From Pseudogymnoascus verrucosus (lineage: Eukaryota), in assembly GCA_001662655.1 (NCBI GenBank), contig KV460244.1: a DNA stretch of 64,000 nt. The stretch is one strand, 5' to 3'. The first letter of the stretch is position 1; every line of letters starts with the position of its first letter. This document shows positions 3,201 through 42,579 of this stretch, piece after piece. Under the pieces are notes generated by a model that worked only from the letters and a program-made list of their open reading frames with translations, did not search any database and was not told the DNA's origin. The translations under genes were made by a program, and so were the position numbers.

Positions 3201-4646
3201 TCATACAAAGTCCACCACTCTACTCCAAGCTCCCTCCTCGCCCGCGCGCCTAAACTCCACGCCTTCGCCAAAGTATCCAGCACCCTGCCACGCGACCATT
3301 GTCGGCCCATCATATGGTCCCTGCTTGGCAGCTCCATCGCGGCCATCGATCCACCGATACTCCCACATCTTCGCTGGTCTGGCCCCACTCGGTTCTTCAG
3401 TATCTTCCGATGACGGCTCAACCCACGCGTCCCCTGTCTCTCGACCGTACTGTCGAATGAGCATCTCGCGTTCCTGTTCGTAGATGTCTGTTTGACCACG
3501 TGTAAGAAGTTGGTCTGCGGCTCCCGTGATGGCGTTTATAGAATCCCTGATCTTTACTTGAGCAGGGTCTTCAGCAGGCTTCTCCGCGTCGACGTCCATT
3601 CCATCATCGCCCTGCTTCTGCTTCTTGAGCTTCCACTTGGGAATCTTCTTGACCTTCGTTTGGCCCTTTCCTAACCTAGCCAGCGCCTCCAACACTGACT
3701 CGCCCTTCTCTAGCTGTAAAATAAGCGTCCGTAGTATGTCGGAGGTGAGCATAGCATCGTCGTCTAGTCGCTGCTGCCGCCTCTCTGCCTCGCGTTTCTC
3801 GTGCGCCTCGGCAGCCCGCTTCATATCCTTCTTGCTCACTCCCTCCAGCCACGTATCATGAGCCGCGTCTGGGTCCCCAGCTTTCCTCACGTAGTTCCCA
3901 GCCGCATCGAAGCGACCCTCCTCTTGTTCTGCTTTCATATTAAATGCGTCTACCCTGGGAGCGTTCCTCTTGAGGCCACCCGCACCCACCTCCTCGTCCA
4001 CGCCCTCTTCTTCGGCAGCCAGAGCCGCATCGTCCTCGTCGTCGCTGCTCTCCCGGTCATCCATCGCATGTGTTGATAGCTTTCCTTTTGGGTCCAAAGC
4101 GAAATTGCCGGATATATGACCTCCACTCTTGCTCGCGTCCACCTGGCCCTCAATCTCGTCCTCCTCCAAGAACCGCACGCCCTTGGATTTCCTCACGTTA
4201 TCCCCCCCCTCCGCACCTTCCTCGCCGGCTTCATCCTCCTCTCCGCCGAACATGTCATCATCCTCGTCATCCTCGTCCTTTGTATGTGCGCCTGCTCTCG
4301 AGCTTCCGTTTTTTTCGTAGCTGTCTAGCTGTTCGAATAGATTGACGTCGCCACCTTTGCCCCTCCCGCGCTCCTCCGCACGCGCATCGAAGCCCTCGTT
4401 TTCTGAGTCGCTGTCGTAGCCATCGATGTTAACAGCATTGCGCTTCGTATGCGCGCCTCCACCAAGAACATCAGCGTCCAACACGGCATCGTCCTCGGGC
4501 GCATCAGGTGCTAATGCGGAGGGGTTGCGCAGATCGAATTTAGGCTTCTTTGGGGAAGGGCCGTCGGCGGTCTGTGGCTGCTGGAAGCGAGTGTATTCTT
4601 CGCCAGCGCGCTTTGGGCGCGCAGCATTAAATCGACTGGAGGACAT
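3201..4646 (-). CDS. LIN1: LIN1/CD2BP2 (U5-52K/Snu40)-like protein with C-terminal GYF domain
   Basis: Single 481-aa ORF with AFNMKAEQEEGRFDAAGNYVRK, LEKGESVLEALARLG and GYF motif WEYRW...GPYDGPTMVAWQGAGYF. Confidence 0.88.
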   Translation of the reverse strand: MSSSRFNAARPKRAGEEYTRFQQPQTADGPSPKKPKFDLRNPSALAPDAPEDDAVLDADVLGGGAHTKRNAVNIDGYDSDSENEGFDARAEERGRGKGGDVNLFEQLDSYEKNGSSRAGAHTKDEDDEDDDMFGGEEDEAGEEGAEGGDNVRKSKGVRFLEEDEIEGQVDASKSGGHISGNFALDPKGKLSTHAMDDRESSDDEDDAALAAEEEGVDEEVGAGGLKRNAPRVDAFNMKAEQEEGRFDAAGNYVRKAGDPDAAHDTWLEGVSKKDMKRAAEAHEKREAERRQQRLDDDAMLTSDILRTLILQLEKGESVLEALARLGKGQTKVKKIPKWKLKKQKQGDDGMDVDAEKPAEDPAQVKIRDSINAITGAADQLLTRGQTDIYEQEREMLIRQYGRETGDAWVEPSSEDTEEPSGARPAKMWEYRWIDGRDGAAKQGPYDGPTMVAWQGAGYFGEGVEFRRAGEEGAWSRVVDFV

Positions 4647-4965
4647 TGGGATATACTGGTAGGTCGAGGTTGAGGCACTGGAGATTGTGCTGTGGTCGTG
4701 GCCTTCGCTGTGTTGGGGTTTTGACTTTCGCCTCCTCCGAGCTACTACCTTGGAGCCGAAAGCTTAAATTCTTTAGGCCCAAAAGTTGCGAAACGTCATC
4801 CCGCTGTACCTCTGTAGCCTACGACACATCAAGTCACCCATTGCTTGCCATTATCTTCTCTGGGATTCACCATCACGCCGTCTTTGAATCCACATTCTCT
4901 TATATTCACTTTCGGGACACGTACAGCTTATATAATACTGAATCTACTCTCTACGACCTTCTACG

Positions 4966-6279
4966 ATGGTAAGCTTCTTCAGTCACCCCACCCCGCAGCT
5001 CCGATTCTTCGCCGCTGGAGTCGACTGACATCCACAGTTCAACCCCGACTTCTTCGACGCCAACGACCCGGCGCAGATGTACAACATGCTCCAGTCCGGA
5101 GCTATGCGTGGAGCGCCCGCGCGGCGCTTCGATGAGTACTATCGCTGCTATCCTACCGTCATGATGTCCGGGCCAAATCGCGACTACCTGAACTACGGAG
5201 GGAAGATAATTATGCCACCATCGGCACTGGACAAACTCACGAGGTTGCATATTACATATCCGATGCTGTTCGAGCTCATCAACAAGCCGAAGAAGGCACA
5301 AACACATGCCGGAGTGCTGGAGTTCGTGGCGGAGGAGGGGAAAGTGTATCTACCACAATGGGTGAGCATCCCACCCCCACTACCATCTCCCCAGTCGCCT
5401 TACTGACCCCAATAGATGATGAACACGCTACACCTCGAAGTCGGAGACCTAATCCAGATCAAATCCACAAACCTCGCAGACGCCAAGCTCGTCAAGTTAC
5501 AACCGCAATCCCCCACCTTCCTCGACATCAGCGACCCCAAAGCCGTCCTCGAGAACGCCTTCCGAAACTTCTCCACCCTCACCAAGGGCGACATCTTCAG
5601 CTTCCACTACAACGACACTGTCTACGACGTCGCCGTCCTAGAAGTCAAGCCCGAGAGCGACAAGATGGGCGTCAGCATGATCGAAACAGACGTCGAAGTC
5701 GACTTTGCCGCACCAGTCGGCTACGTCGAGCCCGAGCGGACAAAGGGCAGCGGCACCAGCACACCCCGCAGCACCAAGGGTGGCGTACCCGCCGGTGGCC
5801 TCCTCCACAACCAAGGCACAATGGCGCAGTCCATAAACTACGACGCCATCTCACCCAACTCCACCGCCGCCACATCAGGCGCCAAAGCGGTGTCCTCCAA
5901 CTTCCTCCTCGGCGGACAGAAGCTGAATGCGAAGAAGGGTGGCAAAGCACCGACACCAAAACCATCAACACCAGTCGCGGGCGCATCGACGAACGCCCCC
6001 GAGGCCGCAGCCGCGATCGCGAGGTCGAGTGGCCCCCAACCTCTCCGCCTGCCGCCTAATAAGCTCTTCTTCGGATACGACATCAAGCCGCTAAAGACAG
6101 AGGAGGATCGCGAAAAGGAGAACGCAGACGCCATGCAACCCGCGTTCGCAGGGCAGGGACAAACGCTCCGCGGAGGCGTGAAGCGGAAGGGCGACAACAC
6201 AGAGGAGGCGAGCAAGGAGGAGGCACCCAAGAAACCGGAGCCGAGCGTGGGGCGGAGGCTGGACGGGAGGAAACCTTAG
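4966..6279 (+). CDS. UFD1: Ubiquitin fusion degradation protein Ufd1 (Cdc48 cofactor), 3 exons
   Basis: ATG-only exon 4966-4968, introns 4969-5037 and 5362-5415; RFDEYYRCYP, NYGGKIIMPPSALDKL, THAGVLEFVAEEG, LDISDPKAVLENAFRNFSTLT, ETDVEVDFAAPVGY, SHP-box-like FAGQGQTL. Confidence 0.95.
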
Positions 6280-7859
6280 GATTGAGTCCCCGGTGGGTGG
6301 GATTTGGAGATTTTCAAGTGGCGGGATTTGCTTTTGCGGGATAGGGATAGGGGTCAGGGATTGAGGTGTTGGGATGGGGAGGGATTGACGGACGGGCATA
6401 TGGCTGGTTTGGGAGTGATGATTGGGTTGTCTTTTTTAGTTGGGCAGGAAATACCAATCTTGTTATACATCATCCTTGGCTTGGTTGGTTGGTCTCGTCG
6501 AGGCTATTATCGTCATCTTGCTTGCTTGCTTGCTTGCTTGGTTTTAGCGAAGGAGTGTGTGTATGCTGGCGTATTATGCTAGTCAGCTCAACCAGGTAGT
6601 TGGAGCATCAAATCTCCGGCTTTTCGGAAACTATCATCATCATCAGTCTAGTAATATATCGAACTATGTCACAAGCTTGTTATAGATCCATAACATTCGC
6701 CTACTCTCGCCTACCCTCGCCAACTTTGACAAATCTAAACCCGAAATTACTCAACTCCCCACCCTCACCTCACTCAGCCCAGTTAGTCGTCGAGTCGTCC
6801 CCCCTTCAAGCCTCAAGATCTCCAATCCCACCAAACCACCCTAGCCCCCCTACCCCCCACCCCACCCCGGAACAACCTTCCGCCCGCCGCGCCTGAGACC
6901 TTCGCCTCAACCCCTGCAACTTTACAACATGCACGCACCACCACCACCCATCCCAACTCCACCCATACATCCACCCACCCACAAAAACCATCCACCACAA
7001 CATCCACACAACCCGCCCCGCCCCAACCGCCCGGCCCCTTCCCCGCTCCCCGACCCTGCTGCATCGGGAGGACACACCGCACTGAACGGATGCGCGCAGG
7101 TGTGGTGGTACACATATATGGGAGGTGATGGAGGGGGTTATGGTGGGCGGGACGGTGCGGCGGTGGCGGTGGTTTTGTGCGACGGGTAGGTGTGGGATTG
7201 GGAGAGCGGTGTGGCAGTGGAGGTGGTGGTGGTAGTGGGATGGGATGGGATGGTGGTGAGGCGGATTTTATAGAAAAATGAATGCAAGATAATACTTTGG
7301 GTTTGTATGATACGATTAATCACAGGAGCTTGAGAGTGAAAGTGGACGTAGGTTTGATGTACTGTATCTCCATTGAACGCGCGTGCTGATCTATACCATC
7401 CCATCCTCCTCTGGCCGTGTATACCGATCTGTTTCTCATCCACCATCATCATCATTTAGTAGTATATCTATTTCCCAGGCCTGGTATATTAACTCCCCCC
7501 ATCCATCCATCCATAAACACCACCCTGAGTGTATGGCCATTCATTATACCTCATATCTCCAATCGTAAAAACGTAGAAAGCAAAAAAGAGACAGAAACGA
7601 AAAGGGAGAACAGACACTAGTTGTAAAAATCAAATATAAACTCCATTCTCAGCTTTTTTTCTTCGTCTGGCAGTAACTCCTAGCCACTTCTCAGAGAGCA
7701 ACCATCACTGGGAAGTGGGTGAAAATCGAGGGTCCGTAATAACGAAAGGCATCATGCCAAACCGTGAAATGAAACCGATCAGACGTAAAGACTAGACCTA
7801 GACCTCGTTAGTTCTCATCATTCTCATACACTCAAACGTAGTGGAGACGAAAAAACAAC

Positions 7860-8768
7860 TTACTCCTCATCCAAGTCCACAAACTCCTCCTCGCCGCTCA
7901 GAGACTCCATCTTGAACTGAGCCGCAGTCTGGCCTCCGAACGCAATGCCATTGATCTCCTTGAAGCCGCCATTCTCCTGATCCTCCTTGACTACGTCGCG
8001 CTTCCTCTTCTTGCTCGGCGTGGCAAAGTCCTCAGCCTCCTCGTCATCGACATTGTTGTCCAACTGCTTGGGCTTGCGCGAGGCGGGGGTTTTGGGCGTC
8101 TTTGGGGTTCTGGGCGTGCTGGGGACGCTGCCATTGGCGCCGGTGTTGGAGGCTTTGCGGAGCTTTTGGAAGTGCTGGCTGGGAGGTGTTAGTTGGTTGT
8201 AATGTGGATTGCGGGATAATAAATTCGGGGACTATGTGCAGGGTAAAAAGGTTTAGACGTAGTGAGGCTGATAACTGTGGGGACTTTGCGTGGAGAGAGG
8301 TGGGAAGAGAGCTGCGTGGGGCTGGAGAGATCAAACGCGAAGAGAGAACAGTGATAAATCAGACAGTTTCCATAAAACAGAACTGCTGGGGAGAAAACAC
8401 GAAGAGGGGACAGCGATAAATCAGAGAGTTTCCATAAAACAGAACTGCTGATTTTAATTTGCATAAAAGAAAGGTAGGCTGCTGATGAAGATAGTGCTAT
8501 GGTAAAAGTCGGTCTCAGATCGAACTACAGCGCTGATAGACGTGCAGTTATAGTGAAACCACATATAAAAGTGGTGAAATTATGCTGAAGACAGATGAAG
8601 GAACGACAAAATAACATACCGACAGCCTTCATGAGAGAAGGAGTAGTTCTCGTTCTTGGTGGCCATCTTGGCAGCGATAACGCGCCAGTCCAGACCCTGG
8701 AGCTTGTTCTCGTCGATGATGGCGAGCAGGAGGTCGCGGTCAGCTTCAGGAGTCCATGGAGAAGGCAT
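7860..8768 (-). CDS. Array gene A: small SANT/Myb-like domain protein (~155 aa), 2 exons
   Basis: Exon 8768-8620 (MPSPWTPEADRDLLLAIIDENKLQGLDWRVIAAKM...SHEGCR), intron 8619-8179 (GTATGT...CTAAC...CAG), exon 8178-7860 (QHFQKLRK...TPRTPKTPKTPASRK...EEEFVDLDEE*); splice keeps the frame (468 nt). Confidence 0.82.
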
Positions 8769-11471
8769 GGTGATGATGATTGTGAATTAGTTTGCAGTGG
8801 TTGTTTGTGAGTGAGAGTAATGCAGCGAGGCAAATTGCAGGTGCTTTGAGGTTTGAGGGAGTAGATGTAGGTGGAAGGTTGCAGTTGTGGTTGTGGTTGA
8901 TGGAGGGGCTGGTTGTAGGGTGTGAGGCGGGGTGATAAAGAAGAACGCGGAGGCTGGTAAAGTGCGAAGGGAGGACGGTGGCAGTGGCAGGCAGTATCTG
9001 GGACGAACGAAAGATACTTGGTAAAGTGCGTGCAGATGTGAAGGGACGCGTCGCGGGGGGATGGAGGAGGGGAGGATGGCAAGGGATAGATGACGAGCAA
9101 AGAGCGGTAGGAGATGCCTTGTATGGGGAGAATACATCAACTTACTCGATATACTTACTACACTACAGGTCTAGTTTCTACTAAGTTGCAGCAGAGTGTC
9201 TCACCAGTCGCTATCAAGCAGATGCAAAAGTGATATTAACAAGGAAGCTATCTCCTGAAAAGCCTCTGACCGCCGGCCACTGAGCCAATGGCGGTGAGGA
9301 CATGTTTGGGGGATGATGGGATGCTTCTCTCGCGGGGCGTCGTTGAGCGCCCTGGTCGGCGTCAACAATGCGCCAGTGGTGAGTCAGTGTGGCTGATCGA
9401 CGAGGATGCCTGTAGGATGCCTGTAGGCTCCTTCTAGGTGGTTGCAGGGCTGCTTCCAGGTGGTTGAAAGGTGAGAGGTGCAAAGATGGGCGCAAGATAT
9501 GATATGAGGGGATTGGACAATGGACGAAGAGGATGGGTGGACGACGACGGCCCTTATGCAGGCACTGATACACTGACTAATGCAGGAAGATGCAGGAGGA
9601 TTGTATCTGTAGTACAGTCTTCCCCCGCATGGTTGTCGGTATGTGGCATAGTCTGGATAGTATGCATACTATCCAGACTATTCGCATGTCGATTCCCGTA
9701 GATTTGCCCCCAGTTTGTACAGGAACATGGTCTTTCCGTGGTGATGGTTCGTGGTGGTTCGCTGTGGTTCGTGATGATGTTGTACGTGCCCCGCTGCTGC
9801 CTGATGTCTACCTGATTTGTTTTGGTTTCTTCCCTGCAAGACCGTAACAAGAGGCGCATATGATCCATGCATTTGGGTTCTATTCTCCGAAATAATAGCA
9901 GGGCGAGAACGAACTAGGTAATACCTGCATAGTGTGTCCAGTAATGTATGGTATCTGATAGTAGTGTGATAGTATTTTCCCGGCATTTCCTGCGCCGACC
10001 CGGCGAGCTGGGTTGTTACTCCTCTCTGTCCAGGGGGAACGTCGTCCCAGCCACCGGGAACGGGGCGGGATATCCGGCTGAACTATATTACACCGCACTA
10101 TAGCACTATAGCACCCTTGTTTACAGTAACAGTACTATAATACCTCGTATGTAAAATGCCTGTAAGATGCCTGTAAAATGCGGCCATCACTTTGTTTCGC
10201 CAAGCTGGGGACGCCATGAAATGTGATAGCTATGTGATAGCTATGAGACAGCTATCTTTGCGCATTAAATTCGGGAGATTAACTAGATAATCAAGGCTGC
10301 ATAACACATTCCCACACAACATATTATATAGCCATCGTAAATATAGCTCGCCCGGAGAAATACAGCCTCACCTCAGTCGGAGAAGAGAGGAGAAAGGGAG
10401 AAAAGGGGGAAACAAAATCATGGGGCTGGGGAGAAAACATCTCCAAGCGATAGGCGAAGGGACATGCACGTATGGATGGAGTACTTGTCTAACCCCGGCA
10501 GTCCCTGCCACTAGCCATGTAACTACCACTACCAGCGGCACTAACACACACCCATGTCGCTTAGCGCGCTTGTCAATCTGCGCAATCAATCCCCATCCAT
10601 CTCTCCCATCCATGTACTCTCCCTCCACCTCCTCCCACCTCGCTCCTTCCATCTCCATGCTCCATATCCATGCCTCATATCCATACCTCATATCCATGCC
10701 CCATATCCATATCCATATCTCATATCCATACCTCATATCCCTCCCCCCATCTCCCTCTCTACCAAACGAACACCTATCACCGCCACCATCAATCGCCGAA
10801 ACCATCTCCACTCCCTTACCACTTACATTCAAACCCCCACCATTCCTCGCTATGGACATATCCCTCACTCCCTCCCTCCATCCTCACCTCCCCTCCCCCT
10901 TTCCTCCTCCTCCACCCTGCCAAACCCCGTCCTTTCACCCCACGCCAAACCCTTCTGCAACCATCCGATGCTCCTCACCCCCCATTCGCTAATCTTCATT
11001 CATGCATCGCTCCGCTCCCTAGCCCCTCTGCTTCGATCCCGGGACGTCCCCGCGGGACCCCTTCCCTCTCTTCCCTCCACCAAACCCCCTGGCGAACCCT
11101 GCCGATCTCCGCCCGCCCCATGCCGCCCAGCTAGACATGCCATCGTGAACGAGAGACAGATCCCCCACCCGATCCCCCCACCATGCTTGCCCTGCGCCGT
11201 GCCAGCAAACCCGACCCACGCTCTCCCTTTCACCATCTTTCACATATCAACAGCAGCCTCCTCCCATCCTGTCGTGACCCTCCCCCACTCATGGACATTC
11301 TCACTTTGCTGAACTTTCTTCCTCAAAATCTGCACCACCTGAACATCCCGCCCACCGCCGCAGAACTTACACCGCATACGCTCGATCGACACTTTACGCT
11401 ACAAACCAACCCCACCACCCCTTGCGTCCAACCCCAAATCCATCACCCTGGCATCCCTACGACGTTCCACC

Positions 11472-12362
11472 ATGCCGAGTGAGGCACAGATGGCGAAGTT
11501 CATGTACTACATCGTCAAGCAGCTCGATGTGCGGAGTGTAAGTTTTTCCCCTCACCCCACTCCAAAAAAAAGACAGACACTAACACATCACCAGGTCGAC
11601 TGGAACCTCGTCGCGAGCGACATGGAAATCACCAACGGCCACGCGGCCCGCATGCGCTTCGCCCGCTTCAAGAACCAGATGGAAGGCACAGTCCCCAAAG
11701 CCCGCGCGCCCCGCGACAAATCCCGCGCCCCAAAAGCCAAGCGCGTCAAGACCAAGGACGAGAAGAAGGAGGAGGACGGCGGCGAGAAGGCCTTGCTGAA
11801 ATTGAAACTTGAAGAGGGTGCCGCCGCCGATTCGGCTCCTGCCTCAGGGGAGCCCGCGGAACAAGCTCTGGCCAGGTCGCCGGCAGTCAAGCCAGAGCCA
11901 GCGGACGACGTCGTGCTCGGGGATGCGGATGCGCCAGGTGAGGCGGTCAACGAGAGCGAACTCCCAAAACAAACCACGCACATGTCTCACACACCCTCTC
12001 ACTCGCCGCCGAACTCGACCAACCCGACGCCATCACATTCCCTCGCAACTCCCACGCACCTCCACGGATCGCCCTACCACCACCTCTTACCAGAGCCACG
12101 TCGGTCCTCTGTCAACTACTCGCCCGCCTCCAGCTACACCTTCTCCCCGCACGAGATAATGTCCTCCCAGGGCAGCATGTTCATGCAGTCCATGGAGGGT
12201 GTGGGGTCGCAGGATATGGGGATGGCGCCGACAGCCGCATTTTATGATCCATTCCTGTATGTGTTGCCTCAGTCACATCAGCAGCAGCAGCAGCAGACGC
12301 TGGTGGATGCGCAGGGGAGACTGGTGAAGGGCGAGCTTCAGTGGGATACGTCGTTTTGTTGA
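11472..12362 (+). CDS. Array gene B: Myb-like domain protein (~277 aa), 2 exons
   Basis: Exon 11472-11537, intron 11538-11594 (GTAAGT...CTAAC...CAG), exon 11595-12362; spliced KFMYYIVKQLDVRS^VDWNLVASDMEITNGHAARMRFARFKNQMEG, then a basic and a S/P/H/Q-rich tail. Confidence 0.85.
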   Translation: MPSEAQMAKFMYYIVKQLDVRSVSFSPHPTPKKRQTLTHHQVDWNLVASDMEITNGHAARMRFARFKNQMEGTVPKARAPRDKSRAPKAKRVKTKDEKKEEDGGEKALLKLKLEEGAAADSAPASGEPAEQALARSPAVKPEPADDVVLGDADAPGEAVNESELPKQTTHMSHTPSHSPPNSTNPTPSHSLATPTHLHGSPYHHLLPEPRRSSVNYSPASSYTFSPHEIMSSQGSMFMQSMEGVGSQDMGMAPTAAFYDPFLYVLPQSHQQQQQQTLVDAQGRLVKGELQWDTSFC

Positions 12363-14226
12363 TGGGTGTACTGAGCGAGATGAATAATGAATCGGCGGGC
12401 GGGATTAATAAAATCCTGACGTTAGCAACGTCAGATGGGATGGGTGGGTAATATGGGTTCGTGGTGGAGTTTTTGCATCGGGTGACGAAGGTGGTCATTT
12501 TCATGTGAGCTTGTAGGTTTTTTGTGTGTGTTTTGAGTTTTTTTGTAATCACGGATACCATAGCATAGATCGTTTTGGATTTGGAAATAATGATGGGAAT
12601 TAGATTAGATGGATGGAAGGGAGCTAGAGTCGCTGATAACATCGTCCCGGTGAGGTTGGCAATTGTTTGTGGCAAGAGACAGACGACATAAATCACATCG
12701 CTGAATTTGTTCAATTGCACGCCGAAGGTTGGTTTGTAGATGCTTAACTTTGGTTTCAAGTTCCGTGATTTGGGGATCGCGAGTCATTGTTGTGATGATT
12801 TGAAAAGGCTTCTACGAAGGTCGAGGTTCGTTGACAGAAGTAGACAAACATTATCTTTCGAGCTAATTCTAATTAGTATGACTTTATTTCATGAAATAAA
12901 GTCATACCAATTAGAATTAGCTCTAAAATAACAGGGGCAGAGGTAGCTGGGCAACGAATAATGCTCCTCGGTCACACTTGTTAGTTGAGGACCAACGACG
13001 GCATGATGTAGGTTTCAGCCAGAATTAATCTTGTCGCCTTAGTAGGGCAGTTCTACTGTCTGGAGAAAGCTCTCTGAAGAAACCCTGTCTGAATAAGAAA
13101 GTAATCAATGTAATATTTGTCTTACGAGATGTGCTCAAACAAGCAATGTGCTCCAGGATTTGGAAATTGGATATGTTGCTGCTCTTATTTCTCGGGGGTT
13201 GATATGAAAATAGTAATCCGCACTTCGAGATGTGTTCTCATTTTAGCTCAGATAGTGAAAGAAATGAAGACCAAACCCACAAGGTGGTTTATAAAACAGA
13301 ATGCTAGATGACGACAATTCTTTTCTGCTTCCATTTCGTAAAATTTGCCTTTGCAGGATAAATAAGCATTAAGAAATTTAGAGTTATATTACTGGTGAAT
13401 TTAAAATATAATTTAGAAAACTGTTGTCTTCGGGCCCGAATAGTCCTCAAAATAACACAGAACAAACAACACAGCACCGGAAGACTCGAAAGGCTTCTCC
13501 AGAATATATCGGATACTGATCTGGAAAGAACTGCCATTGTCTACCAATCAACCGTCTTCTTTCGATTTCTATAATATCAACCATACAAACACAGACCGAG
13601 TGCTCTGGACTTCCCGAGTCCAAACCATACAAATTGCAGGAGAAGCTGCAGGAGAAACATCTATTTTCTGACCGCCCTTCTACCGCAACTCTTCGCTTCG
13701 AGGCCTATAAATTCTACCTTCCACCCACAACCGTTTTCAAACATTCCATCCACAATACACCTCACAAACATCAATCCACTTGCTCCTGCTTTGGCCTTTT
13801 GTCATTGCAAGGCCTTTATAATTTGCAAATCAAACCATTCAATACAAAAAGTAAGTTGCATTCCCATATTCTCACTTCGAGCAATGAGCCTCAGCCAGTC
13901 TGGTTCATATGAACCACACTTGGTTGAATTCCACCTCTGAGTTATACTTGGACTTTCTTCAAAGACAGGCTAGTGATTACTTCTACATCTATCAAAGATA
14001 TCTGCTTGAGCATATACAAGTGGAACATCAAGTTGGCGGCCATCACTTCACAACTGCAACAATCATAGTCTCACATTTTCACCTCGAACCTTGCTCACCA
14101 AACAACCTACTCTACAAAACATATCATTTCACATTCCAGACTGCTAACTATTTCAAAAGTCTCATCATCCACCACAATTAAAACCAGCTCAACAGTCAGC
14201 TTCGATCTTTGCATCCAACCATCAAG

Positions 14227-14959
14227 ATGTCTGGACAACCACCATCCTCTCCGGCCCAGCCTGGCGCCACTCGCGTCCCAACTCCACTGGAGTGCAACTT
14301 CCTCGTGGCCATTGTCAAGAACAGTGATGGAGTCACCAACGTAAGCTTTCTTCCATACAGTCATCGGCTTTGTTTTGATTTCTCTGTCACTCCTCGGGAC
14401 ACTCTATTGTGAATTATCATAAATTCACCCACACCAACAACGGCCCGAAAACTCCTCATTTTCCTGGCATTATCTCTCCTCTTCTTGAAATCACAAACAC
14501 AATTTTTCAGTCTTCCTAACAACCCCACAGATCGACTGGGACGCCGTGGCCAGCGAGGCCGGCTACAACAACGCCGCCACAGCCCGTGTCCGCTTCGGCC
14601 AGGTCAAGAAAGCCCTCGGCTGGACAGTCCGCGTCGTCGGCTCCAAGGGCAGCCCAATCAAAAGCCCCACCAAGGTCGAGAAGAAGCCTGCCAAGCCCAG
14701 GGCGGCCCGCAAGCCAAAGGCCTTGACGAAGAAGCAGCAGGAGGCCTTGGCTGCGGCTGTGGATGATGACTCCAATGACAATGAGCAGGAGGATGCTGAT
14801 GTCTACAAGGAGGAGGATGATGCCAATGGCCACAAGAAGGAGTTTGGCAATGGCTACAAGCAGGAGCATGACGAGGTTGTCAAGACCGAAGACGTCGATG
14901 AGGATGCCGATACGGCGGTCGAGGAGGAGGAGTACGCCTCCGCTGACGACTATGCCTGA
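14227..14959 (+). CDS. Array gene C: Myb-like domain protein (~180 aa), 2 exons
   Basis: Exon 14227-14340, intron 14341-14530 (GTAAGC...CTAAC...CAG), exon 14531-14959; spliced NFLVAIVKNSDGVTN^IDWDAVASEAGYNNAATARVRFGQVKKALG, then SPIKSPTK, Lys-rich linker and acidic tail. Confidence 0.85.
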
Positions 14960-16567
14960 AGGCTTGCGGGAATCTGATTTACTATCCAGAGCCTGGGAGA
15001 ACAGTTGATGCTTCACACCCATCTGATTGTTTTCGCCGCGACGCTGGGGTTTCGGTGCATTTGATTGCAATTTCTGCATATTTTGTAAGTTTTCTATTTC
15101 CACATCTCCTGGACTGGATTCTATCGAGCATACACTAACGCGGAAACCACTGCAGATTTCCAGGTTTACACATTCACGGTGAATCTGAAGGCGGGTCCGG
15201 AAACCTGCATATATCACAACAACATCGTACTGGGTGGATGGGCGCATTGCGAATGTTTCTTTTCGATCTGATTATATACTCTGCGGTATGACATGGATAG
15301 GATGGGGTGAGAAGGGATGGGCGCATGGCAGTCTTTAAGATAGGAATGAAACCGCGTTTTTCGATAACTGCAGTGATGCCTTCACCTGTGACGAGACCAA
15401 AATCCGTATTTAGTATTTTGCCTCATTTGAAACACCGCAGATTTTGTGTGAGGAGGGCCGGAATGCTTGAAACGAAAGAATGCTCTTGGTGTAGAACTCG
15501 GCATTATATAAAATGAGAGTGACGAACTCATCGAGTCTTGTATTTACAAAGCAAGGCACTGGAAGACTCGAATAGTTTGTAAATGGCCATGAATGGGGTT
15601 TCCTCTGGTGCATGTTCCTGGAGAAAGAAATTGTCAAAACATGTTTTTATATCACAATTACGACTTGTCAACGGTCTCTGTGGCCACCCCGCACTGCCCC
15701 AGCCTACTATTTCTATTTCCGCTGACTTTGGATACCGAAGGTGAGCACTGGGACGTCTGAATAATCATGCTGTCTGTGATAATACTGCGGCTGTGGTTTA
15801 GTCTCTGGCCTTGCACAAGGCAACGAAAGTAGATGGTTGGCGGTCAGAAACATTGTCTCGAAAGAATGCAGAGTTGCAGGGGACTGAGTCAACCTGCCCC
15901 TCGTATATAGAGCAATAAGTGACTGTGGAATACCCTTATTTATAATTTTAAAGGGGAGATGGGATAGCACAGTGTCAAATGGAACGAACTAGCCACATCA
16001 AGTGCGGAATTTGGGATCTGTAGTGAAGTGGCACATGAAGCATGGTTTGTAAAAGAAAGGTGAGTGGACACCAGTGGCCAGGTTGGAAACATATGAGAAT
16101 GATATGGATCTTCTCTTTGGGCGAATCAAAGAGAATGGTCTTAATAACAGGAAAGTAAAAGTGAACCTTTGATTATCTAAGGAAGACGTAAATGAACCGG
16201 AATATTCCTATACAAATCTATGAAAGACTGAAGCCGCTCGAAGCACTGAGTGCAGCCGCAAAATCCCCGGTTGCCTCGGAGCCTCCAGATATAAATACCC
16301 AGGTTGGCTTCTTACTGACCTTAATTCTTTCATCACCAACAACACCAAGCAAAAACACAACAATCAGTGGCTCCACCACACTTGCTCTTGTTCAATCACT
16401 CCGAAAAGGAAACATAAGCTCCAGGTATGTGCAAGACCCAAAAGAAGCTGGTGGCAACCATTCGATTTGGACCTCGACTCACTTGCTTTCTTCAACCTCA
16501 CCTGAAACTATACTAAAACAGCCACAGCTTGACTTCACCATTCCTCAGAAACAGGAACATCGCCAAG

Positions 16568-17275
16568 ATGCCATCCAAGGTACGCAACATCATGAACGAA
16601 ACCCCCAACGGCAATGACTGACCTGAACCAGAAGCTTGACACTGTTGCTGAAGGTGTTGCTGACACCGCCGGTTCCGGCATGCGCGCCGATGATGTCCTG
16701 TTCTTGATCGATTGCCTCCATAACAATACGGGTGGCCAAGTCCAGGTAAGCAGCCTTGAAACTCCTTTATCTAAACACCGAGCTTGTCATATCGAGTGCT
16801 GTGTTGAGACTGAACACTCACCACACCTATCATATACTAACATTTCACTCAGATCGATTGCAGCGCGGTTGCCAAGAAGCGCAACATGGCCAACCCCAGG
16901 TCCGTTGCAAACCGCATCGCTATCATGAAGAAGAAGTACGGCTTGCCCCTCGCCGCCAGCACAGCCAAAGTTGCTGCTAAAACCAGCGATGTCGTCGACG
17001 GCAACAACGATCTCGCCATTGGCACCCAAGCTTCCCCTGTCAAGCGTACCGCCAAGAAGAACGCAGCTCGCAAAGCCCAATACAAGATTGCCAAGCGTGA
17101 GGAAACCCGCGCCCAGAGTCTTTCCGACAACAATGTCGACAAGGACCATCAGTCGGCCATGGACACCGATGAAATGGAGAAGGTGGTCTTTGGGAACCCC
17201 GATGATGATGAGGAGAATGATGACCACCAAGATGGCATGGAAGCTATGGTCAACGGCAACCACGACATTGTCTGA
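16568..17275 (+). CDS. Array gene D: divergent Myb-like domain protein (~182 aa), 3 exons
   Basis: Exons 16568-16579 (MPSK), 16632-16745, 16853-17275 with GT-AG introns and CTRAC branch sites; spliced DVLFLIDCLHNNTGGQVQ^IDCSAVAKKRNMANPRSVANRIAIMKKKYG, SPVKR, acidic tail. Confidence 0.78.
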
Positions 17276-18461
17276 TCTTTTCAATCGCCTCTTGGCCAGC
17301 GGCCTGGGCATTAACTTCCAACTTTCGAGTTAAGAGGCGGTTTCTATTTCTTTTGACGCAACATCACCCCCCCCCTCGCAAGGGCTGGACATATGGGAGA
17401 CGAGCAGTTGCACTAGGCGGAGTTATATCAGATGGATATTCGATGCCTAATATTTTCCCTTCATAAATGGGATTTAATGAGATAAGATTTGATCTTCCAA
17501 TCGTCTTGGTGCAATGATTGAACATAATTGTACTTGTGTTTCAAGAAGAGTCTTCAAAATAAGCCAAGGCCATGTAGGTTTGTGTAGATATGGAAAGGCT
17601 ATGCTGGTCTCTGGCCTGATGGCGAACGCCAGTGAATGCCGGACATGTTTGGGATTCATTATCCGACCAAATGCAGTTTGCCAACCCAACCCGACCATAA
17701 ATCTTACATAATGAATCATTTGAAGCCCCGAAGTAATAGCGGTGGCAGCTCAGTTCGTAATGGTGGTATACCTTCACTTTATAGTAATACCAAAAATGTT
17801 CAACATGGAAGGATAGATTGAAGCATCAACTCCGGGCCTTCTCAAAGTAGACGTGTGACGTTTCTACTGTGCGCCATGGTAACGACTTCATAATGCACCA
17901 TTCCATATGCTGCATAATGACCTTTAATACACATCCAATGCACATGTCCGAAAGGAACTGGGTGAACGTTATGCCGCCGTCACGCTTGCCAGTTGAATGT
18001 TTGCCGGAATTATTGCATACAGTGCATCCGAGCTCGCACGAACCTCTTTTTGACTGATTGAGCATATTTCCAAAGCGTAATCGTAGGTGCAGTAGTTCAC
18101 ATATATTCACATTGGAGTTTGTTATTCCCGACGTTGTTGTAAGCTGATATATACAACAGTGGCATCTCAGACTTTGCTGCAAACTCCGTGTTCGTTTCCT
18201 GGCATTTGACCAAGTCGGTGCAGGTCCTGCTTTCATACTTAAAACCAAATATATCCGCCAAGCTCAGGCCAACTCTTCAGTGTGGAGCAACATATATTTT
18301 GGACTTCAAGCATCCACAAGCACTTTCTTCCTTCACATCAACACACCTGCTTCGGTCGTCAAATACTTTCTTCTGTCGCATCCATATACCTGCTTCTAAC
18401 AACACTTGCTCGACAACACTTTCCAGAGCTCAGTTGCAAGTCATCCACGGATATCATCAAA

Positions 18462-19002
18462 ATGCCACCAGCTACAAATGAAGAGCAGTTCCGCTTCCTC
18501 ATCTCCTGTATCCGTTGGTCAAACAATGGCAAGGTATTAAACTCATTTGATTTTACTGGCAGCTCATTGCTGACTATTTCCACAGGTTGATTTCACAGAA
18601 GTTGCCAAAGAGTGCCAGGTGGTGAGCAAAGGTGCAGCGTAAGTCAATCTCCATTCCCAGTCTTCCGGCCATATTTGATGGTGACCTTGATAATTTTTAC
18701 TTACGACCGGATGCAGCGCAAAGCGATATGAGCGTATGATGCGCGCTCATGGGATACACCCCAACGGAGGTCCCGGAAGGGCTCCAACTGCTCGCCAACC
18801 AAAGACAGAGCGCAATGCAGGACCATCCCCTACCAAGAAAGCAAAGGGAAAGGCCGCTGCGTTTGATGAGAGCATGAACGTTGACGACGACGAGGAGCCG
18901 GCGGGCAGCGACAACTTCAAGGCGGAGAACAGTCAGGATGAGGAGCTTCTCGTCATCAAGTCCGAGCAGTTCTACGAAGTCCCAGACCTCCAAGATGATT
19001 GA
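18462..19002 (+). CDS. Array gene E: Myb-like domain protein (~136 aa), 3 exons
   Basis: Exons 18462-18533, 18586-18638, 18717-19002; spliced MPPATNEEQFRFLISCIRWSNNGK^VDFTEVAKECQVVSKGA^AAKRYERMMRAHGI...SPTKK...acidic tail; frame intact (411 nt). Confidence 0.85.
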
Positions 19003-20060
19003 GGGGTTGGAAAGGTGATCGGCTGCCGAGTTGTGGCTCACAAAATTTCCCATCCATGCAAATGTTTCTATGATTTCATGGTTTGAGTTGAGGGGTGGGA
19101 AAGTTGACCGGGTGCCGAGTTGTGGCTCACAAAATTTCCCACCCAAAGCAAGTTTTTCTCTGATTTGATGGTTTGAGGCGGAACATACTTTTGCACATGA
19201 GGGGATGATATGTGTCTTTGTGAACTGCAGATAGTGACAGTTACAGATATTAATCAGACACTTCTGCTCTGTTTCCACAAAGTAAATATTCGTGGGGACT
19301 TAAAAGTGATAATTGCCATTCGTAGTTGCCGTGGATACCCACAAAGATATGCAGACTCTATTCTTGACCACGACCAACTTAGTCGCAGCTCAATTTTTGG
19401 GGCAGGGTGCGAGAAATTCCAACGCGAGAGTCTTTTGAGGTGCGAGAGTGTTTGTAAAGACAATAATGAATAATAGCGCCTCACTTTCTCAATTGCGTTC
19501 GCGAAGACTGGGACCACGAGGCGTCGTCTCAGTTAAGCGGCGACCCATCTGTAAACATTGTCTGCTTTCTTCAATGCTGCCACAATAGCAATTACACAGC
19601 AATTGCAACTGGTATCTAGAGTCCCTCTAGCGCTGCTCAATTAGGTACGTAGATCGAGTTCTTGTCATCACCAATCTTGCTGTCACTTCCTCTGTATTCT
19701 TGCTCTTGGTCTTGCTTCAGGCTCTGGGGCTGGCCTCGATCTGGTGTCCACTTCATCACTCTTCACCTTGCCTGCAACCACCAGTTCATTTAGCTTGCCC
19801 CTCTTCCTTCACATCCATTTCACCTTCACTCATAGCTGATCATAAAGGCCACTATTCGTATATGCTCTTCGCTAGATAAACATTCCACATCTAGGTGAGG
19901 TCCTGGGAGCTCCATTCGACATTGAGATTCCAATTCACCTGGCTTTCTTGACGACGTCGTGGATAACATAGCTAACTCTGATACCAGCTTTCAAGCTTAT
20001 TGCCCTAGACCCCAACCAACAAGTCGTTTTATCGAGTACCGTAAACTCGAATCAATTGCC

Positions 20061-22400
20061 ATGGCTCCAGTAAAAAAACCCAAGGTCGGGACCAAATCCG
20101 CCACTGGTTCCGAAGCAAAGAATACGATTGCTCGCCGCAGGAACTCAGCTGCGAAGGTGGCTGTTGGACGCCCTACTTCCAGATCGCCCCAAAAACGCCC
20201 CGCCAAAAGCAACGAAGATGATGGCGTTGGGGACGATGAACCTCCTTATGAGCCAAGCGATGATGAGATTGATGGCGATAGCACTGAAGGAAACTTTCAT
20301 TCCAGTCCAGTTACTAAGGCCACAAAAGGTAAGAAGGGTCCAGTGAAGTCTGCCAAAAAGATGATCTATAAGAAACACCTTCGAAGAGACGCAACAAAAT
20401 TTACGACTAGCCAGGCTATGGTCGATGCGGAGGAGGAGTTCGATCCTCGTGCTGCTGCGTATCGGGGGAAGGCGACCCAGAGTGGCGGAAACGGACGTAA
20501 GAAAGGTCGGAGGCTCATTCGCTGGACCGGTAAGACTCCCGCCCGAACCATGCAAGTGTATCCGAAGCTAACAAACCTCGCATTAGCCCAAACGGACCAG
20601 TTGTTGTTGCTTTGTCTCCACCATGAACTGGCCCGGAACAAGGAAGAACTTCCCTATGAGGCTATTGCTCAACGCATGTTCCCCGAAAAAAATGCCACAG
20701 GTGGCGCTATCAAGGAGCGATTCGCGAAGCTTCGCATCGAGTGCTTGAATAGGGGTTCGTGGGTGCCACCTATTCTTGGCAAGACCCCACAGAACACTCG
20801 ACCAGACGTCCGAGGCGTTGTTCGTCTCGCACCAGGAATTGACAAGGGCCGATTCGTTCTTTGGAAAGAGGATGCATCCAAACTCATCGACCCCAAGGAT
20901 ATCAACAAGGGCCACGTCGATGCTCAAAAGAAGGGTCTTCAATACTCCGAACGTGTGTGGATCAGCCCGGGGGCAGAGAAGGAGTACCTGAAATCAACGC
21001 ATGCCCATAAAGCGTTGAATCTTTCTCCCATTTCTGGTCCAGTTCCAATGGATGATGATGAGTTGCTCTCGGACGAGGATGAGGAGGAAGAGATGGAGGC
21101 AGTATCAGATGATGGTGCTGTCGTACCCTGCACGCCGAAAAAGCGCAAGGCTACTGTTATCAACGACTCTTCAAAGAAAAAGCCCAGACCAGTTGCTCGT
21201 CCAAGCCCAAAGAAGATTGCTGCCAAGGGGCGGGCGACGCAGGCCGATGAAAGCGAATATGAGGGCACCACAGCTGGCGCAGGTAGCAACAGGCTTTCAC
21301 CAAAGAAGGAGCCTGGTGCTGGTCGATACAGGAGCCCTAGGGGTAGACCCAAGAGCTATGATATGACACCGCCTGACGAAGATTCGGATTCCGGCGCTAC
21401 CAAAACGGCCGAGTCGAGTGATGAGAGCGAGGATGACGAGAGTCCCACCAACAACCGACTGATGATGATGGCATTTGAAAAAGACGAGGAGGTTAGACCC
21501 CTCAGGTCCATCGTTATTGTCCGTGGGTTTACTCCTGGTGCTCTCAGCAAGTTTCCGCCTGGCATCCAGGGCCCTGGGGACGATGACTATGCGGACGATG
21601 AGGTAGCTGAGGGTCCTGGCATCCAGGGCCCTGGGGACAATGATTATGCCGACGACCAGGTCGCTGAGGGTCCCACCGCCTCATACAATGGAAGCGAATC
21701 TGTAATCGATGCAGATGATGATAAAGCCGCTCTCCATTTTGAAGACAACCCAGATATTGAATTTGATGATAGCATACACGGAGTCGGACAAGATGGCTCG
21801 ATGGACGAGCAAAATTTCAACCTCCAGGATCTTCTTGCTGCCATGAACCGGAACACGGACAACAACGGACAATTGATCAATAAAGATCTCTGGGAGATCC
21901 ATGTGGAGCAAATGAATGCACTCAAGGGGGCCGGGATGCAAAATCCACCTCCTGCGCAGTCACGCCACCAGACTCAGATCCCTCAATATATACAGCACCA
22001 AACACAAAACCAGCTCACTCCTAATGGATTTGGCTCTTTCCCGGGCAACTTTGGAGGCCCTCAAGTCAGCTTTGGTGGTTCTAAAATCCGCTTTGGCGAC
22101 ATTGATTTTCAACCAATGCACTCAGATGGAATTCAGGGAAAGGCCGCTTATTACAACACCAAGAACTTCATTGAAAACGGCATGATCGATACAGCTCAAT
22201 ATGAAAAGATGAAAGGAATGGAATCCAACTCAAGTGGCCATATCAAACCAGACCCTGTTCCAGCAGGATTTTCGGGGTTTGACGCCACCATACCGCCAGT
22301 GCGAGACGATGAGTTCTTCTCACCTGACTACGTAGGAGGTGGTGAAGCCTCCTTAGATGGCGGCTTTGGGCCCTTGGGTCCATTGGAAGGTTACTTTTAG
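20061..22400 (+). CDS. Array gene F: large (~760 aa), mostly disordered protein with a Myb/SANT-like domain and an AT-hook, 2 exons
   Basis: ATG 20061 (MAPVKKPK), intron 20530-20586; spliced RRLIRWT^AQTDQLLLLCLHHELARNKEELPYEAIAQRMF...GGAIKERFAKLR; PRGRPK at 21336-21353; TPKKRK/SPKK motifs; acidic tracts. Confidence 0.8.
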   Translation: MAPVKKPKVGTKSATGSEAKNTIARRRNSAAKVAVGRPTSRSPQKRPAKSNEDDGVGDDEPPYEPSDDEIDGDSTEGNFHSSPVTKATKGKKGPVKSAKKMIYKKHLRRDATKFTTSQAMVDAEEEFDPRAAAYRGKATQSGGNGRKKGRRLIRWTGKTPARTMQVYPKLTNLALAQTDQLLLLCLHHELARNKEELPYEAIAQRMFPEKNATGGAIKERFAKLRIECLNRGSWVPPILGKTPQNTRPDVRGVVRLAPGIDKGRFVLWKEDASKLIDPKDINKGHVDAQKKGLQYSERVWISPGAEKEYLKSTHAHKALNLSPISGPVPMDDDELLSDEDEEEEMEAVSDDGAVVPCTPKKRKATVINDSSKKKPRPVARPSPKKIAAKGRATQADESEYEGTTAGAGSNRLSPKKEPGAGRYRSPRGRPKSYDMTPPDEDSDSGATKTAESSDESEDDESPTNNRLMMMAFEKDEEVRPLRSIVIVRGFTPGALSKFPPGIQGPGDDDYADDEVAEGPGIQGPGDNDYADDQVAEGPTASYNGSESVIDADDDKAALHFEDNPDIEFDDSIHGVGQDGSMDEQNFNLQDLLAAMNRNTDNNGQLINKDLWEIHVEQMNALKGAGMQNPPPAQSRHQTQIPQYIQHQTQNQLTPNGFGSFPGNFGGPQVSFGGSKIRFGDIDFQPMHSDGIQGKAAYYNTKNFIENGMIDTAQYEKMKGMESNSSGHIKPDPVPAGFSGFDATIPPVRDDEFFSPDYVGGGEASLDGGFGPLGPLEGYF

Positions 22401-28012: not shown

Positions 28013-28337
28013 GTTTGCGGTTTCGGAGACAATGGTATATGGCGAGAGAATTCGAGATTCCAGAAGAAATAAGAAAATATAAGGGTTGAGAAGGGTCGAG
28101 GCGTAAGGTATGTGTGGGGGGGAAGCTTGGTGGCATTGTATTGATGAAGCTCCATGGTACGGCAGCCTCGGCGATGAGGCGCCGACGCTAGCGACTTATC
28201 GGGCGGACAAAATTCTGTTCGCCAAAAAATATTCTGAGGGACGAGATGATAACAAGGGAATTTCGCAATAACCTGCGAATTCTTAACTTCAAAACCCCAC
28301 CCTCACAACAGCACCGAAGGTGCAATTAACCGTCACC

Positions 28338-30693: not shown

Positions 30694-32531
30694 CTAACTA
30701 CACTCAAGCGTCAATAGTGGCATCAAATCTATCCCTGCTTCTCCCATCCCCTTTCTCTCCCTAATAAGCCTCTCCATCACATCACTTGTCCACTTACTCT
30801 CGAAATGCATCCCACCCAACTCAGTAAGTCTCTCCAAAATCCAGTCCCGATGGATCCCATCTTCTGTCTCGATGCCTGCCATAAACATCCCCCACACTTT
30901 CATCGCAAGTGTGCTCTTATCGCGGTTATAGTCCGTATATGCAATCTGCATGATGCTAGACACGGCCGTGCGATGAATTTTGGTAGGAGTTTGCTGTTTG
31001 CGAAGCGTTATACGGTGGAAGAGCACATCGGCCCAATAGACGCAGGCTGCAGAGCGGATCGTGGCGTAGACGCGTCGGTATTGACCTGCACCTGATAGCC
31101 GGGAAGTGAGGATGAGATCTTGGTATCGCTGTGAGAGATAAGCATATATTTGTGGACTGTGGCGATAATATCCTTACCTCGCCGAGTTCTATGAGCTCTT
31201 CGAACAAGCTCTCGGGAGTCTCCACACCATCCTTACCCGCATGTCTCGCAATGGCAAGCTGCCATATGCGCGACCGCATCAGCAGGCCATGGTGCAGAAA
31301 CTCAAGTGGGCGATAGTTCTCCACGTCGTCCAGGATCGCATCTTCCGGGTATTCCTCGCCCCAGCAGTGGCGGCCTGAGATACGTGCTCTGCGGTATAGG
31401 CGTTCTAGTTTGGCGGAGGGGAGAGAGGACTGGGATATTTGGGAGAGGAGACTTTGAGATGAGAGGCCTTGGCCGCCGATGGCGTCGATATATCTACGCC
31501 AGTTAGAGCTGTATTATTGTTGGTGTGGGCACTTACGAGATCCATAATAGCAGCAGCGATGATAGTAGTGACAAATGCGAATCTCCCCCATTCTCTTCAT
31601 CGTCTACTGTCGCCACCGTTCCGGATCCCTCCGAGTCCATTACTGACTTCTCATACGACGCATATAATGATCTTGCACCGTCCAGATGCAGACGGAGATG
31701 ATGGCGCGAATAGCCGAACCTGACCTCATAGTCGACCATGAACAGTAAAGCTGCCAGGAGTCGCTCCAGTCTCTGTTTCGGGTCATCGGTATGCTCCTTG
31801 CCAAGAGCAGTCGATAGTTCTCGCACCGCCACGTTATAGTGATGTAGGCCAATATCTTCCGAGTCATCGCCGCCCTTCTTCAGGCGGTGCATTTCGCTGC
31901 CTGACGTGGCGAGGATCATGCGCATCACGATCGCGTCATTGGCAGCAGTGTATCGGTAGATGTAGGACAAGTTCGACCAGCGCCACGGCTTCAGGTATGC
32001 CGTTACCATCGTGCAGCTGGGAAAGTACTCGAAGCATCGTCGGTCGCGCGGTGAGAGGAGGAGAGAGTTTGCGCAGGGGATATGTTCGACGCTCAGGCTC
32101 GGCGAAATCGAAGGGGCGAAGTTTCGCATTGACGGAGTTGAGGAAGAATTGTCATCATGTAGCCAATTCAAGACCTGATTATTCGCAGAGACCTGAACCG
32201 TCGATGGTTCAGAGTCCGATCGCGATAGTGCATCATCTTGCGGTATGTCTTCCTTCGACTCTATCAGCCGAATGGACCTCTGCGCTTTGTCTCCCTTGGC
32301 TTTCGAGACAGTCCTTGGTTTCCGTGTCCGCGCCGTCCATTCACAGTCAAGTTCGAGAGATGTACAGCGTCGGCATTTCGGCCGCTGCTCGTCGCATTTG
32401 AGTTTCCTCTTCAAGCAAGTTCCGCATCCTTTGCAACGGTTAGATCGGAAGTCGCACGAGTTCGGGGACGTACCTGTCTTTGAGCGGGGAGCATTTCTCC
32501 CAAGCAAGGACCCTGTTGCGATCTGCACCAT
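30694..32531 (-). CDS. Zn2Cys6 transcription factor with Fungal_trans_2-type C-terminal domain, multi-exon (5' end uncertain)
   Basis: RSKT^GCGTCLKRKLKCDEQRPKCRRCTSLELDC (intron 32473-32429); later exons GLHHYNVAVREL, HHLRLHLDGARSL, WGEEYPEDAILDDVENYRPLEF, WGMFMAGIETEDGIHRDWILERL. Confidence 0.85.
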
Positions 32532-32699
32532 TAGCTGTGATTATGGACATGTAGCGAAACGGTATACGATTCGAAGATGAATAGATTGAGGTGAGAGATT
32601 GTTAATGCCATTGCTATCGCGATGTTGTGGTTTCTAGTGTGGAGTTCTAAATGCGGGGAACGATGCGGGGTGGAACTCCACATACTATCCGATCCGTTA

Positions 32700-37362: not shown

Positions 37363-37471
37363 ATAATAACATTTAAAAAGCTCTATCAATCATCATATTC
37401 AAAAAAATTTAGGTGCACGACTTTCTTTCCTGCCAAATTTTTGAGCGTGTACGGCTAGCTACCTATCAAAT

Positions 37472-39271: not shown

Positions 39272-39412
39272 ATTAATAGCTTGTATCTGCGCTTGTAAAC
39301 TATGTCCGTTTACTTCGAAGTTATTCGCAATGGTAATATCAATCAGAAGGGACAGAATAAAACATCTAAATACCAAACAGAACACAGACCTATTCGACCG
39401 CAAAAGTGAAGT

Positions 39413-42570: not shown

Positions 42571-42579
42571 ATCTTATAA

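Follow-up and report, generated by a model that had tools for sequence, protein, structure and literature searches.

What does an intron that falls at one and the same codon boundary in four neighbouring genes say about their origin? The question is raised by a 64,000-nucleotide stretch of the fungus Pseudogymnoascus verrucosus (GenBank assembly GCA_001662655.1, contig KV460244.1), called the window below and corresponding to G000:C39:124001-188000 of a 30-Mb fungal assembly. Here six genes lie between UFD1 and Hsp60, A on the minus strand and B, C, D, E and F on the plus strand. We regard it as probable that they belong to an ancient cluster of small single-domain Myb/SANT-like genes comprising two subfamilies, each with its own intron. 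B-type genes (B, C, D, E and an unlinked paralog, G) carry a phase-0 intron between helices 1 and 2 of the domain, in A-type genes a phase-2 intron interrupts the beginning of helix 3, and an A gene stands head-to-head with a B gene in nearly all scorable fungal contigs.

The initial annotation had placed introns of B, C, D and E between codons directly before VDW, IDW, IDC and VDF. All four are exact at the coordinates below, run from GT to AG, are in phase 0 and leave open spliced models:

11472..12362, plus strand: gene B, 277 residues, PF22980; exons 11472-11537 and 11595-12362
11538..11594, plus strand: B intron, 57 nucleotides, phase 0, preceding VDW (VRS^VDW)
14227..14959, plus strand: gene C, 180 residues, PF22980; exons 14227-14340 and 14531-14959
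14341..14530, plus strand: C intron, 190 nucleotides, phase 0, preceding IDW (VTN^IDW)
16568..17275, plus strand: gene D, ~182 residues, divergent PF22980-type; exons 16568-16579, 16632 (or 16635)-16745 and 16853-17275; ortholog in locus L007
16746..16852, plus strand: D intron, 107 nucleotides, phase 0, preceding IDC (QVQ^IDC)
18462..19002, plus strand: gene E, 136 residues, PF22980; exons 18462-18533, 18586-18638 and 18717-19002
18534..18585, plus strand: E intron 1, 52 nucleotides, phase 0, preceding VDF (NGK^VDF)
18639..18716, plus strand: E intron 2, phase 2, in helix 3, one codon upstream of the A intron on the alignment

The codons after the four shared introns are GTCGAC, ATCGAC, ATCGAT and GTTGAT (VD, ID, ID and VD), a CTAAC/CTGAC-type branch site is visible upstream of each acceptor, and the site maps just ahead of helix 2 on the AlphaFold2 (AF2) model of a B ortholog. 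The B intron has no stop codon, so that its retention would keep the frame. As indirect support, the NCBI gene models of B orthologs in Pseudogymnoascus have their splice junction at the identical place. Moreover, two open reading frames on short Logan contigs (P0019, P0027) pass the B junction uninterrupted, like a spliced transcript, and the DNA-type records P0005, P0006 and P0018 read through the intron. With independent positions, the chance of four introns at one codon boundary of a ~55-codon domain would be ~(1/165)^3, or ~2e-7. Convergence, that is, independent gains at a favoured proto-splice site, is very improbable. The exon ends CAG (D) and AAG (E) would suit it, but those of B (AGT) and C (AAC) are unlike a proto-splice site; because only D and E have exon ends of the MAG type, such a bias does not explain the shared position. 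All scorable B genes also keep the position, as do G and every paralog of loci L007 and L025, and the genes are homologous by profile and by tree, so that convergence is already largely refuted. Taken alone, the intron is ordinary evidence of paralogy. Outside the coding exons, C and D have consensus donors upstream, at 13851 and 16425, and C has a likely intron (15085-15155) in its 3' untranslated region (UTR), which suggests UTR introns at both genes.

The family to which these genes belong is PF22980 (Myb_DNA-bind_8), whose gathering cut-off of 27 bits is exceeded by B (52.7 bits), exon 2 of C (29.1 bits) and G (38.5 bits). D and E were scanned as single exons only: E matches in pieces (21.6 and 13.3 bits, E-values 1.4e-4 and 0.053) and reaches 24.4 bits in the genome search, and D gives a weak match (11.1 bits, E = 0.26). 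E scores 21.7 bits on the B-type profile made in this analysis; A exon 1 and F have no PF22980 match and score 4.2 and 1.1 bits on that profile. In each of B to E, a single PF22980 domain of ~50 residues lies close to the N-terminus and is followed by a charged tail of low complexity; the four domains are 12-27% identical to one another. The homologs of B are Pseudogymnoascus proteins, 74-93% identical, and orthologs are annotated as 'Myb-like DNA-binding domain-containing protein'. The genome search with PF22980 returned six matches, namely B, C, E (two) and, on contig C29, G (two). G (G000:C29:321266-321492; minus strand of L002, ATG at 1727) has a 65-nucleotide phase-0 intron before IDF. 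It has no Myb-like neighbour within 10 kb on either side; a Clr2 gene lies ~8 kb away. Because the unlinked G carries it, the phase-0 intron is a mark of the family and not of the array.

A metagenome scan yielded 31 fungal loci with a B ortholog, giving 32 B genes with that of the window. In a splice-aware hidden Markov model (HMM) scan, the intron was scored in 29 of the 32. L036 has it with a weak GTTTGT donor missed by the filter, and contig ends truncate the B genes of L014 and L037; the scorable B genes with the intron thus come to 30/30. The order of the window is repeated in L007, where five B-type genes all carry the phase-0 intron, as does the C-like gene of L025. All nine C-like matches in Sordariomycete-like contigs, one of them weak (11.5 bits), are uninterrupted at this site, and three of the nine have a different intron, in helix 3. 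In a tree of 41 rows, from which 14 near-duplicate or redundant rows had been excluded, one starred branch (97/94) separates the B-type rows from the A-type rows and F. The intronless C-type genes are nested in the C/D clade (95/99), and a grouping confined to intron-bearers is rejected, with a P value of 0.026 in the approximately unbiased test (p-AU). The simplest history is an intron present in the B-type ancestor and lost in one lineage. Descent of B to E from one ancestral gene, as initially claimed, stands in the sense that they form one family (PF22980, 97/94 branch); the intron does not stand as a mark of this array, given its presence in G and its absence from Sordariomycete-like C-type genes.

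A tentative alternative, to which we give less credence, holds that B to E arose by local tandem duplication of one intron-gaining gene and that G escaped later. B to E are indeed adjacent and co-oriented, as are the five genes in the same order in L007, and a clade of B to E with their orthologs but without G is neither demonstrated nor rejected (p-AU 0.33). G is the nearest neighbour of E in the tree (91/67, unstarred), which makes a relocated copy of the E lineage conceivable. The intronless C-like genes nested among intron-bearers argue against this account, as does a domain identity among window paralogs of only 12-28%. It differs from the reading preferred here mainly in timing, and since B keeps its intron in Sordariomycete-like contigs, the array ancestor would predate the Sordariomycete-like split. 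Under our preferred history of an ancestral family intron, the intron would predate the duplications that gave rise to B, C/D and E/G and would have been lost in the Sordariomycete C lineage; an intron older than the duplications would mean that B to E are old paralogs rather than the products of a recent expansion.

The remaining two genes of the cluster, A and F, have the following structure:

7860..8768, minus strand: gene A, 155 residues; exons 8768-8620 and 8178-7860; N-terminal trihelix/SANT-like three-helix domain, tail basic then acidic
8179..8619, minus strand: A intron, 441 nucleotides, phase 2 (EGCR^QHF), early in helix 3; its position is diagnostic of the A-type family
20061..22400, plus strand: gene F, 760 residues; internal A-like three-helix domain at ~residues 151-215; no Pfam family
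20530-20586, plus strand: F intron, phase 1 (RWT^AQTD; phase counted from 469 coding nucleotides)

As initially annotated, neither gene has an intron at the B-E position and both contain W-T-x3-D-x2-LLL (WTPEADRDLLL in A; WT^AQTDQLLLL in F, where it forms only once spliced). A has one phase-2 and F one phase-1 intron elsewhere. The protein of A is identical to the NCBI model P0070. In every A-type exon examined, the donor is in phase 2 and lies where helix 3 begins, that of L017 apparently being a GC donor. None of these exons reaches any Pfam cut-off, and three of 17 touch PF13837 below its cut-off. Profile comparisons place F closer to A (hhalign probability 69%, hmmsearch 8.4 bits) than to B (3% and 1.1 bits), and its score exceeds those of all 200 shuffles for the A profile only. 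In the tree, F joins A by a flagged long branch, which weakens the case for their union, and A and F as sisters have a p-AU of 0.21 with F on this branch. The proposed second subfamily thus exists, as A and its orthologs, and F leans towards it but is outlying: it lacks the diagnostic phase-2 intron and is a 760-residue protein with an internal domain. F is possibly an outlying member of the A-type family. A and F do stand at the two ends of the array in the window, as the idea that they bracket it required, but no F-like match was found in the 31 related loci, most of which end short of the F position, and the bracketing may be peculiar to the lineage of the window.

Some further features of A and E deserve mention. 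E intron 2 as an exact equivalent of the A intron was rejected, since the alignment places it one codon further upstream; both are in phase 2 in helix 3, and the offset may reflect sliding or separate gains. A ~55-nucleotide imperfect direct duplication was spotted by eye within the A intron (8330-8460). A donor overlaps the last codon and stop of A (7798-7863, minus strand), and removal of the 66-nucleotide intron that it would begin would add five residues (EESSLYV end); the NCBI model P0089 is five residues longer than A, and a similar terminal intron is present in the constant exon of L030.

Several points count against the picture of two old intron-marked subfamilies. The splice sites of the window genes are read from DNA: none of the sequencing records listed as containing the sequence is on record as RNA, and contigs of two sequencing runs cover introns and intergenic DNA, show no joint at the introns and behave as DNA of close relatives. 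D is at background (0.7 bits) on a B-type profile built without its ortholog; its membership therefore leans on the intron, the weak Pfam match and the tree. The tree has 59 columns and several long branches. Class labels of metagenome contigs are inferred by similarity, and those of L008, L017, L025 and L027 come solely from A genes that resemble A of the window.

The two subfamilies are joined by their layout. Of the 19 loci whose contigs reach 1.5 kb or more upstream, 17 have A and B head-to-head with 1.4-2.7 kb between them; the other two extend no further than 1.6-1.7 kb, and L030-L032 are near-identical. Public genomes give the two genes neighbouring locus tags (VE01_07721/07722, VE04_07659/07660 and V501_08010/08011). 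UFD1 and the GYF gene also flank the cluster in L007 and L034, both on the B side in the latter. Extra C-like genes lie beyond the A genes at L009:1421, L023:6 and L025:3214. This placement indicates that the cluster was rearranged between lineages. In the window, the region between A and B is:

8769..11471, no strand: A-B intergenic region, divergent, 2.7 kb, putative shared promoter; one TGACTCA at 9380-9386

Of 16 A-B spacers, 14 contain the heptamer TGACTCA, a Gcn4/CpcA/AP-1-type site, with 23 copies in all against 3.9 expected. It is found in nine of 11 divergent loci, compared with a shuffle mean of 3.1 and a maximum of 7, and is often paired at conserved distances in Sordariomycete-like loci. 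It was chosen post hoc as a top 7-mer in loci that are related to one another, and it is missing from L007 and L008, all of which detracts from its weight; because of the post hoc choice, the enrichment is a lead only. An MCB-like CGCG motif in the spacer is patchy. The sequence CACTTTACGC is kept in eight Sordariomycete-like A-B spacers and is also found near B in the window.

The A-type side of the cluster takes a different form in Sordariomycete-like contigs. There, A1, the gene opposite B, possesses a second exon of its own and is followed by 4-7 more A-type first exons with a single second exon:

L009:3560-5860, minus strand: A-type first-exon array, 4-7 units before one constant exon
L023:3450-5870, minus strand: A-type first-exon array, 4-7 units before one constant exon
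L029:1750-4870, minus strand: A-type first-exon array, 4-7 units before one constant exon
L030:2570-5290, minus strand: A-type first-exon array, 4-7 units before one constant exon
L034:3540-5610, minus strand: A-type first-exon array, 4-7 units before one constant exon

These five loci contain 27 units, L031 being omitted as a near-copy of L030. All 27 end in GT[AG] in the same phase-2 helix-3 register as the A donor, and each continues in frame into QH[LI]QKL; donors were located from their position in the profile together with a GT filter, which makes the GT, but not the fixed register, partly a matter of construction. A spliced unit plus the constant exon gives a protein of 131-167 residues (one is longer in the printout, its start not picked). 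In 26 of 27 units an ATG lies 130-190 nucleotides from the donor, and in the 27th one is visible further upstream in the DNA. The exons have 140-190 coding nucleotides, with 4-7 units in 2-3 kb, and the spacers are 114-580 nucleotides long and 55-75% pyrimidine. Units group by position across species and not by species, and the pooled ratio of nonsynonymous to synonymous substitution (dN/dS) of L009 vs L023 units is 0.13, which indicates purifying selection. Eight donors lack G at +5, and seven of them are found in the last or second-last unit of an array; these units are orthologous, so that few independent events are involved. The conserved weak donors of constant-proximal units may let distal first exons splice past them.

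The Sordariomycete A-type array is a probable variable-first-exon gene. It seems unlikely that its units are instead separate, unspliced micro-genes of ~50 residues, or internal exons of one multi-domain protein. Unspliced, many units do meet a stop at or just past the donor, and public models fuse at least two units in 79 of the 192 proteins examined, including models from Sordaria, Neurospora, Podospora, Thermothelomyces, Rhypophila and Cytospora, and from Purpureocillium, Hirsutella, Escovopsis, Xylaria and Phaeoacremonium. Moreover, the proteins searched gave no transcript in which a distal unit is linked to the constant exon: only two of 44 candidates share the Sordaria constant exon, both of them last-unit models; the protein clusters checked for transcript-type members hold single NCBI models only; and the all-against-all comparison of tails gave no pair with an identical tail and a different first exon. 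Some gene predictions (P0072, P0140) join a non-terminal type of unit to the constant exon. Against these readings of the units stand the common register and in-frame join of all 27, the loss of most of helix 3 from unspliced products, the ATG of each unit, and the spacers, which are short and pyrimidine-rich and in 19 of 22 cases lack a branch site plus acceptor; the peptides of the other three are unconserved. The window itself has no such cluster: its A has a single first exon, the genome has one match to A-type exon 1, and no further A-type exon was found in the window or inside the A intron.

With the array taken as a variable-first-exon gene, it is likely, in our judgement, that filamentous ascomycetes diversify an ancient two-family Myb-like cluster in two ways. 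In Pseudogymnoascus and its kin, whole B-type genes would have been copied (four here and five in L007). In Sordariomycetes, the A-type first exon would have been duplicated 4-7 times ahead of one constant exon, and promoter choice would select one of these exons, encoding helices 1-2 and the start of helix 3, for splicing to the constant exon. The result would be a conserved panel of regulators that annotation hides as fused multi-domain 'hypothetical proteins'. A and B could be co-expressed from a shared divergent promoter, possibly under a TGACTCA-binding basic leucine zipper (bZIP) factor. In the three-helix domain, the basic helix 3 would contact DNA, followed by a disordered tail that is basic and then acidic. 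Paralogs and variable exons would differ mainly in helices 1-2, with altered partners or sites, and the tail and most of helix 3 would remain fixed; which helices 1-2 a product of the variable-exon gene receives would depend on the promoter used.

What such proteins might do is suggested by their predicted fold. The AF2 model of A has helices at 7-20, 28-38 and 46-61 (predicted local distance difference test, pLDDT, 81-90), and that of a B ortholog at 4-16, 25-31 and 37-51 (pLDDT 65-86). Both are predicted to form a three-helix bundle with a helix-turn-helix (HTH), of Myb/SANT/trihelix fold. The top fold match of A is GT-1 (Z 8.1, root-mean-square deviation 2.5, 61 aligned), followed by RAD, TEAD and Tbf1, with SANT and Myb domains only slightly lower, and GT-1 is also the top PDB sequence match of the A profile, a weak one (E = 0.064). 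Foldseek gave no match at E<=0.001 for either model. The best ESM Atlas matches (0.82 for A, 0.88 for F) are leads only; both lists share a cluster with PF22980 on 17% of its members. A complex prediction for A plus B (score 0.17, mark 0.34) is no evidence either way. As candidates for the three regularly spaced tryptophan/aromatic core residues of a classical Myb repeat, A has W5, W28 and F53, and PF00249 is matched at only E = 0.06. All members have a basic helix 3 (RMRFARFK, RQHFQKLRK, KRYERMMR), and we lean slightly towards the view that they are nuclear DNA- or chromatin-binding regulators acting through this helix. Some results detract from it: the DNA binding of every member is a prediction, the best fold matches of B are Lrp-type HTH proteins, and Z-scores of 6-8 can be attained by small helical bundles through arrangement alone.

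It is also conceivable, if rather doubtful, that the proteins are SANT-like adaptors of chromatin complexes that bind histone tails or partner proteins and not DNA, with paralogs or isoforms as exchangeable subunits. A single small domain with an acidic tail would fit this role, as would a variable part made up of helices 1-2 and the lack, in B-type members, of the first tryptophan of classical Myb repeats. The SANT domains of TIP60/EP400, DMAP1, SWI/SNF and RSC also follow GT-1 within ~1.5 Z for A. Yet a basic helix 3 suits a DNA-binding Myb domain better than an acidic SANT domain, and it is found in all members; the top fold match of A is the DNA-binding GT-1; and Sordariomycete A1 contains RRPGPGRGRP, which we take to be an AT-hook-like motif.

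The cluster is set among housekeeping genes:

3201-4763: GYF-domain gene, housekeeping neighbour
5029..6279, plus strand: UFD1, left flank, PF24842
23893..25407, plus strand: Hsp60/Cpn60 main exon, right flank, PF00118
27336-27860: Get5, housekeeping neighbour
28287-30440: RsmB/F-family methyltransferase, presumably Nop2-like, housekeeping neighbour

Short duplications occur at 19023-19113, after E, and at 21631-21663, within F; in the contig of a close relative the former is missing and the latter shows a step back. Further along, 31500-42000 holds two fungal transcription-factor genes beside a CoA-transferase III gene and an AtuA-family gene. A region of low G+C content (34-48%) at 42000-52000 contains a Ty3-type retroelement remnant (chromodomain/SH3/integrase C-terminal) at 45052-45672, adjoined by a HET-domain gene (51952-53574).

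The intron flagged in the window thus leads to an uncharacterised cluster of putative regulators kept head-to-head across distant filamentous fungi. If the proposed splicing is true, Neurospora, Podospora or Sordaria would offer a tractable model, 2-3 kb in size, of promoter choice coupled to the choice of a cap-proximal splice donor, and the public gene models of many Sordariomycete genomes would need correction. The locus also allows whole-gene and first-exon duplication to be compared as ways to diversify one fold.

Among known systems, PF22980 is a catalogued family whose entry gives no function; B and C lie above its cut-off and E and D match it more weakly or in pieces, whereas A and F are outside it. 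No paper on PF22980, its cluster or its intron was found in the literature searched, which did not cover subscription papers or bioRxiv supplements, and the available parts of PMC6794485 with 10 supplements, PMC9604717 and PMC11413187 contain nothing on the locus. The plant trihelix GT-1/Myb-SANT-like family (PF13837) provides the closest fold and PDB sequence match of A. A differs from GT-1 as a 155-residue single-domain protein that reaches no Pfam cut-off and is known from sequence and model. Divergently transcribed gene pairs, such as histone pairs, are familiar. The head-to-head A-B layout of 17/19 scorable loci is alike, and any co-expression or physical pairing of A and B is putative. 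No variable-first-exon gene of fungi was found in the literature searched, most subscription papers being outside its scope. In animals, such clusters include the clustered protocadherins, UGT1, GCNT2 and the 5' cassettes of chelicerate sDscam, as described in the available parts of PMC1885805, PMC3325998 and PMC4835542. So far as those parts describe them, they share with the Sordariomycete locus tandem homologous first exons with their own starts and one or more shared constant exons. The layout, which belongs to the Sordariomycete relatives and not to the window, is known here from DNA sequence; unlike the animal clusters, the Sordariomycete locus is fungal and tiny, would encode nuclear Myb-like proteins, and would be spliced inside one helix of one domain.

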